IMG/VR virus record: IMGVR_UViG_2778261594_000006
Span: 1-38,639 of that record
DNA from: a virus
Lineage: Duplodnaviria > Heunggongvirae > Uroviricota > Caudoviricetes
Strand: one strand, 5' to 3'
Length of the DNA stretch: 38,639 bases
In this document: one piece after another, positions 25,950-29,529 of the stretch
Position numbering within the stretch: the stretch's first letter is position 1
Layout of the letters: each line of letters starts with the position of its first letter
Made by a program: the position numbers and the translations under genes
Notes under the pieces: model-generated
What the model saw: only the letters and a program-made list of their open reading frames with translations
Database searches by the model: none
What the model was told of the DNA's origin: nothing

Positions 25950-26138
25950 ATGGCACGAACAATGCTCTATAAGCCTGGCAACATGATCACCTGTGGTCAG
26001 TTTGCTGTCGATTACGTCATTGTTGATGACGAAGAAGTTAAATCTCACCTGAAAAAAGGCTGGGTAAAAACTCCTGAAGAAACCGCAACGAAGCAAAAAG
26101 TGGCTAAGGCGGAAGAAGATGGCGAAAACGAAGGGTGA
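25950..26138 (+). CDS. Small hypothetical protein (62 aa) between coat and gp4-like genes
   Basis: ATG at 25950 after a GGGAGAAG RBS; the TTG-initiated upstream part of the track ORF overlaps the terminator and is rejected. Confidence 0.4.
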   Translation: MARTMLYKPGNMITCGQFAVDYVIVDDEEVKSHLKKGWVKTPEETATKQKVAKAEEDGENEG

Positions 26139-26580
26139 TCTCGTTCTTAAGGCTTTACGAAAAGCCGGGCTGTATTCCAATGCCACGTTGACAGATGCCG
26201 ACCCTCAGGCAATAGAAGATGCCATTAATGACCTCGAAGACATGATGGCAGCATGGCAGGCGAAAGGTATCGAGCTTGGATATCAGTTTGCTGATACAGA
26301 AAACGGCATCATGCCGTTACCTGACGATGATTCAGGTATCCCTGCATGGGCAAATGATGGCATCGCTTTGAAACTCGCTGTGCAAGTGTGCATAGATAAC
26401 GTCATTCAGCCGTCAGATGCTCTCCTTACCGCTGCTGACAGCGCATATCAGACAATCTGCATCGCTTTAACCAAAATACCACCACTTGAGCGGCGAAATG
26501 ACATGCCTCGCGGTAGTGGTAACAAAAGCGCGTTTACGTGGAATCGGTTTTACATCGAGAAAGATGATCCGAGTACGTGA
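26119..26580 (+). CDS. Head-to-tail adaptor / head completion protein (P22 gp4-like)
   Basis: 153-aa ORF MAKTKGDLVLKALRKAGLYSNATLTDADPQAIEDAINDLEDMMAAW... resembling P22 gp4. Confidence 0.8.
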   Translation: MAKTKGDLVLKALRKAGLYSNATLTDADPQAIEDAINDLEDMMAAWQAKGIELGYQFADTENGIMPLPDDDSGIPAWANDGIALKLAVQVCIDNVIQPSDALLTAADSAYQTICIALTKIPPLERRNDMPRGSGNKSAFTWNRFYIEKDDPST

Positions 26581-26589
26581 GGTGAATAA

Positions 26590-26694
26590 ATGCCGATTCA
26601 GCAACTTCCGCTTATGAAAGGTGTCGGCAAAGACTTTAGAAACGCCGACTATATCGACTATCTGCCAGTGAATATGCTGGCAATTTTGATATAA
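26590..26694 (+). pseudogene. Remnant 5' fragment of gene 10 (tail hub gp10 N-terminus, 34 codons) displaced by the homing endonuclease insertion
   Basis: Translation [31 protein letters not shown] + ILI-stop; first 31 residues parallel the N-terminus of the full gp10 ORF at 27263 ([31 protein letters not shown]). Confidence 0.6.
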
Positions 26695-26730
26695 TAAGCA
26701 CATGAAAAATCGAAACTTTAAGGAGTAGAT

Positions 26731-27315
26731 ATGCTTTCTGAGAATGCTAAAGATATACCTGGATTTGAAGGTGTTTATGCCGTAACAGAAGATGGCAGGG
26801 TATATTCTCACTCACGTGTTGTTAAGGCTGCGCATGGCAGCACGCAACTCAGAAAGGGGCGCTGGTTAAAGCCTAAAATCAATCAGGGAAGGGTGCTTTA
26901 TAATATCGGAGCAAAATGGACTTTTGCCCATCGAATCGTTGCAATGACATTCCTGCCAAATCCTGAAAACAAGCCTCAGGTAAATCATATTGATGGCAAT
27001 CCACTCAATAATAACGTCAATAATCTTGAGTGGTGCACTCAAAGCGAAAACATCAAACATGCATACGCCACCGGATTAAAGAAACCAATCAAGTTTTTCG
27101 GAACCAAGCACCCAAAACACAAGTTGAGTGATGACGATGTTCTTGCAATCAAGTCATCAAAAGAAAGCTTGTCAGTAATTGCGGCTAAGTACGGGATATC
27201 TAAGACCTGGGCAAGTAGGCTAAAGCGTGATGCTAACTGGGTTCATATAAAGGTTGATTCCAATGGCAATACAACAACTACCACTAATGAAGGGATTGGG
27301 GAAAAGTGCGGTTAA
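26731..27315 (+). CDS. HNH homing endonuclease (NUMOD4 + HNH_3 type)
   Basis: 194-aa ORF with NUMOD4-like IPGFEGVYAVTEDGRVYS and HNH motif VNHIDGNPLNNNVNNLEWCTQSEN; AAGGAG RBS; AT-rich relative to neighbours. Confidence 0.85.
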   Translation: MLSENAKDIPGFEGVYAVTEDGRVYSHSRVVKAAHGSTQLRKGRWLKPKINQGRVLYNIGAKWTFAHRIVAMTFLPNPENKPQVNHIDGNPLNNNVNNLEWCTQSENIKHAYATGLKKPIKFFGTKHPKHKLSDDDVLAIKSSKESLSVIAAKYGISKTWASRLKRDANWVHIKVDSNGNTTTTTNEGIGEKCG

Positions 27316-28681
27316 TGCTGATTATATAGACCAACTTCCAGTCAATCTTTTAGCTACGCCCAAGGAGGTGTTGAATTCATCGGGATATCTTCGCTCATTC
27401 CCGGGCATTGCCAAACGTTCTGATGTGAATGGTGTATCGCGCGGTGTCGAGTACAACATGGCGCAGAATGCTGTTTATCGCGTTTGCGGTGGCAAGTTGT
27501 ATAAGGGTGAAAGCGAAGTCGGTGACGTCGCCGGAAGTGGTCGCGTATCAATGGCGCATGGTCGAACATCTCAGGCGGTAGGCGTTAATGGTCAACTGGT
27601 CGAGTATCGTTATGATGGCACGGTTAAAACCGTCTCAAACTGGCCTACAGACAGCGGATTCACGCAGTATGAGTTAGGCTCAGTCCGCGACATTACGCGC
27701 TTACGTGGGCGTTATGCGTGGTCAAAAGACGGAACTGATTCATGGTTTATCACTGACCTTGAAGACGAATCGCATCCTGACCGTTACAGCGCACAATATC
27801 GCGCAGAATCGCAGCCGGACGGCATCATCGGCATCGGAAGATGGCGAGACTTCATCGTCTGCTTTGGCTCATCGACGATTGAATATTTCTCCCTGACGGG
27901 TGCAACCACCGTTGGTGCCGCTTTGTATGTCGCACAGCCATCGCTGATGGTGCAGAAAGGCATTGCCGGGACTTACTGCAAAACGCCATTCGCTGATTCT
28001 TATGCGTTCATCAGCAATCCGGCAACAGGTGCGCCGTCTGTATATATCATCGGCTCCGGTCAGGTATCACCAATCGCCAGCGCGAGCATTGAGAAAATAC
28101 TACGCTCCTACACTGCTGATGAACTGGCTGATGGCGTGATGGAATCGTTGCGGTTTGATGCTCATGAGTTGCTGATTATTCACCTGCCGCGCCATGTTCT
28201 TGTTTACGACGCATCTTCAAGCGCCAATGGTCCGCAATGGTGTGTGTTGAAAACAGGCCTGTATGACGATGTGTACCGCGCTATTGACTTCATTTACGAA
28301 GGCAATCAGATAACGTGCGGCGATAAGCTGGAATCGGTGACCGGGAAATTGCAGTTCGATATCAGCAGCCAGTACGACAAGCAACAGGAACACCTTCTGT
28401 TTACTCCGTTGTTCAAAGCGGATAACGCCAGATGCTTCGATCTGGAGGTGGAATCATCCACTGGCGTAGCTCAGTACGCCGACCGCCTGTTCCTCTCTGC
28501 AACCACTGACGGCATCAATTACGGGCGTGAGCAGATGATTGAGCAGAATGAACCGTTCGTTTACGACAAACGCGTTTTGTGGAAGAAAGTAGGGCGCATC
28601 AGGAAAAACATTGGCTTCAAATTGCGCGTTATCACGAAGTCACCTGTCACTCTGTCTGGCGCTCAGATAAGGATTGAGTAA
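27263..28681 (+). CDS. Tail hub protein (P22 gp10-like)
   Basis: 472 aa from ATG 27263, the same length I recall for P22 gp10; start overlaps the HNH gene 3' end. Confidence 0.85.
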
Positions 28682-29529
28682 TGGCGGATTCGAATCTCAA
28701 TGTGCCGGTAATCATTCAGGCTACACGGCTCGACACATCAGTCCTTCCACGCAATATCTTCTCGCAGTCGTATCTGCTTTACGTTATCGCACAGGGTACT
28801 GATGTTGGTAACGTGGCTAACAAGGCCAACGAGGCCGGACAGGGCGCTTATGATGCACAAGTCAGGAACGATGAGCAGGATGTGATTCTCGCTGACCATG
28901 AGCAGCGAATTTCTGCTGCGGAAGCAACGCTTGTTAATCATGAGGAGCGAATCAGCCAGGCAGAATCAACTCTTCAGGAACATGAAACGCGAATCGCTCA
29001 GAATGAAAGCGATATTGCGTCGCTTGATACCAGAGTTCAGTCGCTGGAGTCGCAGGTTTCAGACCATGAAACGCGCATTGATGCTCTGGAGTATGCAACC
29101 ACACGCAAGAAGTCAGAGGTTGTTTACTCTGGTGTATCTGTAACCATCCCGACAGCGCCGACCAACCTTGTTAGCCTGCTGAAAACGCTCACGCCGTCAT
29201 CCGGGACGTTGGCACCATTCTTCGACACCGTTAACAACAAGATGGTTGTGTTCAACGAGAACAAAACCTTGTTCTTCAAGCTGTCGATTGTCGGGACGTG
29301 GCCCAGCGGAACCGCCAACAGATCAATGCAACTAACCTTTTCCGGCTCTGTTCCTGACACACTTGTGAGCAGTCGTAATGCGGCGACAACAACCGATAAC
29401 ATCCTGTTAGCTACGTTCTTCAGCGTGGATAAAGACGGCTTTCTTGCCACAAATGGCAGCACGTTAACCATTCAGTCAAATGGTGCGGCGTTTACTGCCA
29501 CAACCATCAAGATAATCGCGGAGCAGTGA
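28681..29529 (+). CDS. Tail needle (P22 gp26-like) with C-terminal knob domain
   Basis: N-terminus [43 protein letters not shown] resembling P22 gp26; heptad-rich trimeric coiled coil; extra C-terminal domain as in Sf6/HK620. Confidence 0.8.

Follow-up and report, generated by a model that had tools for sequence, protein, structure and literature searches.

The 38,639-nucleotide stretch of viral DNA analyzed here (IMG/VR record IMGVR_UViG_2778261594_000006; hereafter, the window) carries late genes in the order coat (gene 5), 4, 10, 26, and 14, an arrangement that corresponds to the late region of the P22-like phages (Lederbergvirus). The 5' end of its gene 10, which encodes the tail-hub or packaged-DNA stabilisation protein (gp10), most probably houses a free-standing homing-endonuclease cassette of about 700 bp that spreads by cleavage and repair. 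The cassette occupies approximately positions 26682–27382 on the plus strand, on which all features described below also lie, and it contains both a NUMOD4/HNH endonuclease gene and a replacement for the start of the gene in which it resides. A first-pass annotation of the window had proposed that an endonuclease cassette arrived together with a donor version of the gene-10 5' end, and this proposal is borne out by comparison with the uninterrupted relatives CUS-3, HK620, Sf6, and P22, all of which match the upstream fragment of gene 10 and then the gene itself again from nucleotide 121.

Two copies of the gene-10 N-terminus are present, as had been stated at the outset. The upstream copy, here termed the stump, is a 34-codon open reading frame (ORF) at 26590–26694 that consists of native gene-10 codons 1–31 (26590–26682), three codons belonging to the cassette (ILI), and a TAA stop; it follows gene 4 (26119–26580; Pfam P22_Tail-4), the hypervariable left neighbor, and it retains the native ribosome-binding site GAGGTG on its 5' side. 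The downstream copy opens the working gene 10 at 27263–28681, a full-length gene of 472 codons (Pfam Phage_stabilise, E=1.3e-297) whose product is 92% identical in amino acids to P22 gp10. This gene is a hybrid, in which foreign codons 1–40 (27263–27382), including the working start codon, are joined in frame to native codons 41–472. Between the two copies lies the endonuclease gene (26731–27315; 194 residues), which is supported by Pfam matches and whose 3' end overlaps the gene-10 start by 53 nucleotides in a different frame, in agreement with the overlap reported in the first-pass annotation. Because the cassette carries its own gene-10 start, gene 10 restarts from the cassette and the first 31 codons of the phage become redundant. 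The guanine-plus-cytosine (GC) content falls to 0.39–0.45 across 26600–27400, against 0.48–0.55 in the flanks.

The limits of the cassette are given by phages that lack it. Many close relatives align to the region as two separate segments and lack 673 bp, which is the net length that the cassette adds to an uninterrupted gene 10. The stump is near-identical to the gene-10 start of CUS-3, HK620, Sf6, and P22 up to ...GAATATGCTGGC (26681), gene 10 being interrupted after nucleotide 92 (codon 31), and similarity to the native gene resumes at GGATATCTTCGC (27383, gene-10 nucleotide 121). The last base of stump codon 31 is assigned to the cassette because an A at 26682 is found in all 29 cassette-bearing loci, compared with 4 of 22 native alleles, the remaining 18 of which have T. 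From left to right, the cassette therefore contains three codons with the stops TAA TAA, the TGATATAAT box, a leader, the endonuclease gene, and gene-10 codons 1–40. The foreign 5' segment had initially been equated with the 31 duplicated codons; its presence is upheld, and its extent has to be enlarged to codons 1–40, ending at 27382, on the evidence of the alignments.

When the stump and the working gp10 N-terminus are aligned without gaps, 24 of 31 amino acids and 59 of 93 nucleotides (63%) are identical, a similarity that is significant by BLASTP of the stump against gp10 (E=3e-15); at the same time, a different codon is used at 16 of the 22 conserved residues that allow a synonymous choice. 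The downstream copy was first described as using AT-richer codons and the stump as resembling the rest of the phage, and the GC content at third codon positions (GC3) agrees with this description: it is 0.55 in the stump, 0.53 +/- 0.09 in the native late genes, 0.41 in the endonuclease gene, and 0.26 in the re-coded start, which lies below every 31-codon window of genes 5, 4, 10, and 26. The stump is 98–100% identical to the gene-10 start of CUS-3. In the re-coded segment, nucleotides 1–120 share 60–65% identity with every native allele, and the identity rises to 93–98% from nucleotide 121 on; within nucleotides 81–120 alone, 14 of 40 positions differ from the native sequence, and Met29 is replaced by Leu. 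Moreover, 19 stump sequence variants that track the host background occur among 27 cassette-bearing loci, and the re-coded N-terminal peptide adjoins the endonuclease in every one of its occurrences within the phage collection. Judged from these comparisons, the stump is the native allele and the working gene-10 start is the foreign part. The initial description of a duplicated and diverged 5' remnant thus holds with regard to the remnant, and it has to be reversed with regard to the diverged copy. In the RefSeq annotation of sister prophages, a partial gp10 pseudogene is entered at the place of the stump, and the intervening ORF is listed as an HNH endonuclease.

Two collinear copies of the same 31 codons, 673 nucleotides apart, would also result if the gene-10 start had been duplicated in tandem within this phage, with the copies diverging where they stood and an endonuclease gene being inserted afterwards. 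However, synonymous differences between the two copies are nearly saturated, their identity is just 63%, and their GC3 values are 0.26 and 0.55, whereas the rest of gene 10 is 93–98% identical to native alleles; the re-coded copy is nearly invariant across backgrounds in which the stumps vary; and Salmonella phage UPF_BP1 (NC_047875) pairs a P22 stump with the same re-coded copy. On these grounds a local duplication appears effectively refuted, and the probability left to it is close to nil. In the deposited annotation of UPF_BP1 (L001:1501-2390), the stump is unannotated and gene 10 begins 108 nucleotides too far downstream (1311 instead of 1419 nucleotides).

Several searches were directed at the origin of the re-coded sequence. 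A tblastn search of 50,697 phage records for a donor of the re-coded N-terminus returned only UPF_BP1, in which the segment again lies beside the endonuclease, all other matches being at most 85% identical. For the AT-rich re-coded gp10 C-terminus that accompanies related endonucleases at the other end of gene 10 (described below), only Escherichia coli phage HZ41 matched among the phage records searched, and all others reached at most 66%. A donor search in a large protein collection with an 82-residue query gave short fragments only. The divergent lineages L091–L094 were considered as the source of the re-coded segment and were ruled out by comparison of gp10. Salmonella phage NM-3, which gave two matches in one record and was considered as a second case, has an ordinary uninterrupted gene 10 at this locus.

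The endonuclease gene forms an ORF of its own, preceded by a dedicated ribosome-binding site and lying outside any intron or intein. Its product matches the Pfam families NUMOD4 (E=1.3e-8, residues 7–53) and HNH_3 (E=1.9e-10, above the curated cut-off), and a phmmer search against the PDB gave a single sequence match, I-HmuI of Bacillus phage SPO1 (1U3E, E=1e-8), aligned to I-HmuI residues 4–105. An AlphaFold model built with 53 homologs has a predicted local distance difference test (pLDDT) score of 87 and places helices at residues 134–142, 147–154, and 158–165; in a Foldseek comparison against the PDB, 1U3E was again the sole significant match (full length, 197 columns, E=1e-6, probability 1.0), with a template-modeling (TM) score of just 0.43–0.48, as is expected because the domains are flexibly linked. 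The His and Asn residues of the catalytic HNH (beta-beta-alpha metal) motif, N85, H86, N98, N107, and H110, are invariant across the 53 homologs. Residues 176–194, approximately, are an out-of-frame reading of the new gene-10 start, before which a paralog ends, and residues 185–193 of this tail have a pLDDT below 50. The window endonuclease and I-HmuI share an elongated fold of three parts in the same order, namely an N-terminal beta domain (NUMOD4), an HNH motif, and a C-terminal helical DNA-binding part; they differ in that they are about 25% identical and that I-HmuI is encoded inside a group I intron, whereas the window gene is free-standing. I-HmuI is a strand-specific nickase. By family, the window enzyme is an I-HmuI-type NUMOD4/HNH endonuclease, which would be expected to cleave or nick DNA. 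In E. coli ES5 (NZ_CP133871; L007:1549-2132), a one-nucleotide deletion in an A-run (near window position 26967, GAAAAC to GAAAC) breaks the endonuclease gene up into two ORFs, as is expected when elements of this sort reach the decay stage of their life cycle. Truncated versions of the endonuclease also occur in the protein collection (P0042, P0044).

It could be argued that the interruption is removed at the level of RNA or translation, either by a self-splicing intron or by ribosomal bypass of the kind known from T4 gene 60, with the stump serving as exon 1. Codon 32 does follow stump codon 31 in frame once 26683–27355 is deleted, and translational bypass is used by a cassette of a related kind, the MobA element of T4 (bioRxiv 10.1101/2022.08.31.505936). 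Nevertheless, an Rfam scan of 26300–27700 at E<=10 yielded no group I or group II intron or other relevant match, only chance matches (MicA, 0.74; snoRNA, 6.8); tandem stop codons end the stump, which is itself decayed in one lineage (L091); and a complete second N-terminus, conserved as protein and provided with its own ATG, is present in six lineages, where it would be pointless if the stump were spliced on. Hardly any probability is therefore left to removal by splicing or bypass.

The same architecture recurs in divergent P22-like phages. A protein search returned relatives of the endonuclease at 83, 82, 72, and 69% identity, all encoded between genes 4 and 10, in phages whose gp10 is just 61–70% identical to that of the window; at the nucleotide level, the endonuclease genes of five divergent lineages are 70–81% identical to the window gene. 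The shared layout comprises a gp10 stump of 26–31 codons ending in ...LPVNML, the endonuclease gene, and a second full gp10 start that overlaps the 3' end of the endonuclease gene. The distance from the stump ATG to the endonuclease ATG is 138–141 nucleotides in the six lineages, and that from the endonuclease ATG to the gene-10 ATG is exactly 532 nucleotides in all six. Also conserved across the lineages are TGnTATAATAA, AATCGAAAC, GGAGTAGA, and, at the end of the stump, GTGAATATGCT, which is kept in five of the six and decayed in L091, where the 3' end of the stump has deteriorated. At the same locus as this decayed stump, the gp10 of L091 (L091:4560-6353) has 597 instead of 472 residues, with approximately 125 extra internal residues. 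In every lineage the stump is 53–64% identical to its own working copy, and in six of six the working copy has Leu or Cys in place of Met29 (VNMLA), the one position at the site that has no synonymous alternative. Compared with the nearest sister lineage (L095), the window has identities of 0.82 in gene-10 nucleotides 1–120, 0.81 in the endonuclease gene, 0.74 in the stump, and 0.69 in downstream gene 10, so that the re-coded start diverges in step with the endonuclease. Because the same layout and spacing surround endonucleases that are only 69–83% identical, the stump is taken as a stable part of an old element. The locus had been read as the footprint of an invasion; the cassette and the donor 5' end remain valid parts of that reading, but a fresh scar made in this phage does not, given that the layout recurs in distant lineages. 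The phage of the window probably acquired its cassette from a cassette-bearing P22-like phage by recombination, with crossovers in the stump and in gene 10.

Recent movement of the cassette is indicated by its distribution. It is 97–100% identical in 26 IMG/VR loci, in UPF_BP1, and in 18 E. coli genomes, always at the same exact insertion point; the 26 loci, obtained by a scan of IMG/VR, carry an endonuclease gene 99–100% identical to that of the window, and all of them show the order of stump, cassette, and gene 10. The 18 genomes represent about 2% of the approximately 910 complete E. coli genomes that bear this gene-10 type. Gene 10 is uninterrupted in about 890 E. coli genomes and in 125 phage records, the cassette being present in 1 of 127 matching phage records, and most of the copies found are prophages in bacterial chromosomes. 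A short upstream ORF without the endonuclease, which would have contradicted the first-pass interpretation, was found neither in the 22 endonuclease-less loci compared nor in any endonuclease-less record of a sample spread across about 908 E. coli genomes.

The cassette also stands in unlike surroundings. In UPF_BP1, the left flank and the stump are 100% identical to P22 up to the insertion point, whereas the flank and stump of the window are of the CUS-3 type, although the cassette itself is 97–100% identical between the two. At least four gene-4 backgrounds adjoin the cassette (CUS-3-type, HK620-type, a third type, and P22-type); these four gene-4 types have no usable mutual nucleotide homology, and the 93-nucleotide stump is 81–97% identical across them. 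Which single-nucleotide variants a stump carries goes with the gene-4 background; codon 2, for instance, is CCT where gene 4 is of the HK620 type. Nucleotide diversity is 0.006 in the cassette and 0.0065 in the re-coded 120 nucleotides, compared with values of 0.043 for the stump and 0.041 for the 50 nucleotides that follow the cassette; cassette-less alleles have a diversity of 0.065, and the flank values of cassette-bearing loci are not far below this. By these measures the cassette is younger than its flanks and phylogenetically discordant with them. Identical 700-bp haplotypes were found in three gene-4 backgrounds. Furthermore, the gene-10 body is as diverse in cassette-bearing as in cassette-less loci (0.04–0.1); it is therefore not conserved as cargo, and only the 700-bp cassette moves as a unit.

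The manner of this movement is reflected at the edges. In 29 pairs of loci with zero cassette differences, the first flank mismatch occurs at a median of 36 nucleotides to the left and 35 nucleotides to the right, the corresponding medians for pairs with diverged cassettes being 30 and 28 nucleotides. Since mismatches appear so near the cassette in pairs that share an identical copy, the breakpoints of exchange hug the edges and are not scattered over the 1.3 kb of right-hand homology, a pattern that fits break-initiated recombination at the insertion site better than random crossing-over. The latter would be expected if the cassette were a passive passenger, that is, the product of one illegitimate insertion spread by ordinary homologous recombination, with an inert or irrelevant endonuclease. 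Such passive spread is in keeping with the high mosaicism of P22-like phages, in which gene 10 itself is patchy between phages, with the prevalence of about 2%, the lack of a detectable co-conversion tract, and the frameshifts in some copies, and with an enzyme activity that is predicted from sequence. It is nonetheless judged unlikely. The ORF is intact and the catalytic residues are invariant in nearly all copies, in lineages down to 69% identity, which argues that the enzyme has long been under selection; crossovers placed at random along 1.3 kb should drag along hundreds of nucleotides of flank, whereas the median seen is 35; and the working target copy shows systematic changes at the insertion site, among them the forced non-synonymous one at Met29.

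Under the favored reading, homing of the cassette into an intact gene 10, a cassette-bearing and a cassette-less phage would meet in one cell, either by co-infection or by infection of a lysogen. The enzyme would then nick or cut the intact gene 10 within or beside nucleotides 93–120, adjoining the conserved GTGAATATGCTGGC; the cut is predicted there because this stretch is the only native one that is always replaced and because it borders this conserved sequence. The break would be repaired from the cassette-bearing genome and the whole cassette copied in, with the 93-nucleotide stump as the left homology arm and gene 10 from nucleotide 121 as the right one, and, as the left crossover would lie within the stump, the recipient would retain its own version of it. 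In the resulting genome, both copies of the target should be immune, the stump being truncated at the site and the working copy being re-coded, including Met29Leu; the target sequence is altered in the element-bearing genome, and these changes are predicted to block cleavage. The identity of only 63% between stump and restart may, in addition, suppress recombinational loss of the cassette. As gene 4 is too divergent to recombine between phages, the conserved stump would let the cassette cross mosaic backgrounds. Its persistence could be attributed to its being the only conserved left-hand homology across gene-4 types and, likewise, to gene 4 of P22-type phages, which overlaps the first 41 nucleotides of gene 10 and would thereby bar replacement of these bases without damage to gene 4.

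Several observations weigh against homing by cleavage and repair. Cleavage, nicking, and transfer, together with the activity of the enzyme and its target site, are all predicted from sequence comparisons. Phage homing is generally expected to co-convert flanking markers, as in T4, but no hitch-hiking of flanking markers and no long co-conversion tract is detectable here, identical-cassette pairs resembling unrelated pairs in this respect; frequent later recombination could also sharpen the cassette edges. The gene 10 of UPF_BP1 (window equivalent 27383–28700) is a patchwork, in which the cassette is followed by approximately 160 nucleotides of E. coli type, 300 nucleotides 100% identical to P22, and approximately 850 nucleotides resembling HK620; there is no simple conversion gradient, and patchy conversion or several recombination events could have produced this arrangement. 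The prevalence of about 2% among gene-10-bearing E. coli genomes implies that any drive is weak, recent, or costly. Many of the IMG/VR loci may be near-clonal prophages, which makes the counts of independent events approximate, and the searches described above did not reveal the lineage from which the re-coded segment came.

Signals around the insertion point bear on how the endonuclease might be expressed. An inverted repeat, TGCCAGTG-AATA-TGCTGGCA (26663–26682), flagged as a hairpin by a terminator scan, stops exactly at the insertion point within the best-conserved part of the target, GTGAATATGCT, after which ATTTTGATATAAT follows. The TGATATAAT box with the tandem in-frame stops TAA TAA (26692–26697) lies at 26687–26697 and matches the extended -10 consensus perfectly at 26687–26695. 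TGnTATAATAA is invariant in the six divergent cassette lineages, in which the frame and position of the stump stop vary; the need for a stop codon therefore does not explain why the box is kept. Further downstream, a conserved leader at 26708–26730, AATCGAAAC...AAGGAGTAGAT, contains the ribosome-binding site of the endonuclease gene (AAGGAG) and is kept in all cassette lineages; it is also shared with a paralogous endonuclease at the gene 10/26 junction. A two-hexamer sigma-70 promoter scan returned none on the plus strand, the extended -10 box lacking a good -35 partner, and the candidate layout consists of a weak -35-like GTGAAT in the stump, a spacer of about 16 nucleotides, and the extended -10 box. 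The box is accordingly regarded as a putative promoter only, and hairpin and box together may act as a promoter, a weak terminator, or part of the recognition site of the enzyme.

These signals give some room to a further possibility, a doubtful one, in which selection maintains the stump as a functional component of the element. It would then provide portable left homology together with a promoter, containing the TGnTATAAT box, that expresses the endonuclease from the prophage, and the lysogen would cut and convert, or exclude, cassette-less P22-like phages. Full domestication, in which the nuclease benefits the phage or prophage, for instance by cutting competing or superinfecting P22-like phages or through a role in DNA handling, is very unlikely. 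The conserved box could indeed give prophage expression independent of the late operon, most copies are found in prophages, and the architecture is long-lived. The endonuclease is, however, missing from some 98% of related prophages and almost all phage isolates, and it is therefore dispensable; the promoter remains putative after the two-hexamer scan; and headful packaging of the P22 type is not known to require an HNH partner. Domestication is compatible with homing, and the two may coexist.

Among known systems, the intronless homing of T4 SegF is reportedly based on a free-standing endonuclease gene beside its target, which is self-protected by divergence of the site and spreads by break repair. 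SegF, in work attributed to Belle, Landthaler, and Shub in 2002, is said to be a GIY-YIG enzyme encoded between genes, with no remnant of the target. The cassette of the window differs from it in lying inside a coding region and in carrying a replacement gene start. By analogy, the closest precedent in design is the gene hybrid formed by mobile ORFs (mORFs) in fungal mitochondria, as in atp6 of Allomyces macrogynus and atp6, atp9, cox2, and nad3 of Glomus (PMC3630166). In both cases the endonuclease ORF travels with a foreign end of the invaded gene, the original end, pushed aside, persists as a redundant or unexpressed remnant that resembles the sequence of close relatives lacking the element, and the duplicates have diverged strongly in nucleotides and are conserved in protein (63.5% nucleotide identity in Glomus atp6, 63% in the window). 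In the mitochondrial hybrids, it is the 3' (C-terminal) end that is replaced, the remnant lies downstream, the enzymes are of the LAGLIDADG or GIY-YIG type, and the genomes are those of organelles; in the window, by contrast, the 5' end and the start codon are replaced, the remnant lies upstream with its native ribosome-binding site, the enzyme is of the NUMOD4/HNH type, and the host genome is that of a temperate phage.

MobA of T4-like phages (bioRxiv 10.1101/2022.08.31.505936) is likewise an HNH element at a single site in an essential gene, with a geometry kept across clades, edges at which identity breaks off cleanly, and ORFs overlapping in different frames; it deletes 55–75 nucleotides of its target and substitutes an element-encoded, divergent homologous region with the nick site. 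It also resembles the window cassette in that recent insertions derive from an old element and the endonuclease decays progressively. In MobA, the gene is split into two working pieces with added tails, and a 50-nucleotide translational bypass is needed for immunity, whereas the window cassette causes no functional split, requires no bypass, and has a homologous region that reaches back to a new start codon. The HEG-islands (islands of homing endonuclease genes) described by Barth, Dunham & Seed (bioRxiv 10.1101/2023.03.23.533998) have endonuclease genes at the ends of essential structural genes, interchangeable at each position, and small fragments of essential genes beside the endonucleases were proposed in that work to be recombination substrates. 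The gene 10 of the window differs in having an endonuclease at one end only and a body that is not conserved cargo, and its group consists of temperate P22-like phages, mostly prophages, whereas the HEG-island examples are mostly from lytic phages. Through the comparisons made here, the window lends concrete support to the proposal that such fragments serve as recombination substrates. No description of this endonuclease at the gene 4/10 junction of P22-like phages was found in the literature searched; the epsilon34 paper concerns a different HNH fusion in the early-left operon.

Related endonucleases are found at the other end of gene 10. Paralogous NUMOD4/HNH genes of two types, 55% and 43% identical to that of the window, lie between genes 10 and 26 (L005:1600-2400, L006, L037–L048, and L056–L059). 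Both types carry the same AT-rich (GC 0.30–0.38) re-coded version of the last 340 or so nucleotides of gene 10, which is 52–72% identical to the native sequence, and they leave no remnant, so that they form a mirror image of the window cassette and, in favor of the homing reading, suggest that re-coded gene ends commonly accompany endonucleases of this family; the equivalent position in the window is near 28340–28690, and the 10/26 junction of the window itself is native. A third, unrelated HNH-type gene (164 residues) at the same junction (L029:4954-5448) is flanked by a duplication of approximately 14 nucleotides, AGG(A/C)T(T/G)GAGTAATG; together with the two paralog types, it means that at least three different endonuclease genes use this site. 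Three IMG/VR loci (L013, L018, and L019) have endonuclease genes and re-coded ends at both ends of gene 10 and thus constitute a small HEG-island. Between window positions 26707–26870 and L005:1801-1963, the leader and the first 47 codons (NUMOD4) are approximately 88% identical in DNA, compared with approximately 45% for the rest of the proteins, which suggests that the N-terminal module was swapped recently between endonucleases with different targets. A family member 47% identical to the window enzyme (L050:3001-3519) is located just 5' of the holin/lysozyme lysis cassette of a lambdoid-looking phage; free-standing members of the endonuclease family thus occur widely beside conserved phage modules.

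P22 and related temperate phages are long-established subjects of genetic work, to which they lend themselves well, and the mosaicism of their genomes is a textbook illustration of modular evolution. The present locus provides a compact and well-delimited example of endonuclease-driven exchange of a module inside an essential virion gene, and both ends of gene 10 are hot spots for at least four different endonuclease genes. Automated annotation mishandles the locus, in that the stump is called a pseudogene or is missed and the gene-10 start of UPF_BP1 is mis-called, and phylogenetic analyses should regard the N-terminus of the hybrid gp10 as foreign. The comparative data predict that the break would fall in a window of approximately 28 nucleotides, that a few changes, including Met29Leu, would give immunity, and that the 93-nucleotide stump would serve as a portable homology arm. 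Without introducing a new principle, the cassette would extend a strategy known from fungal mitochondria and T4-like phages to temperate phages and to the 5'-end orientation.

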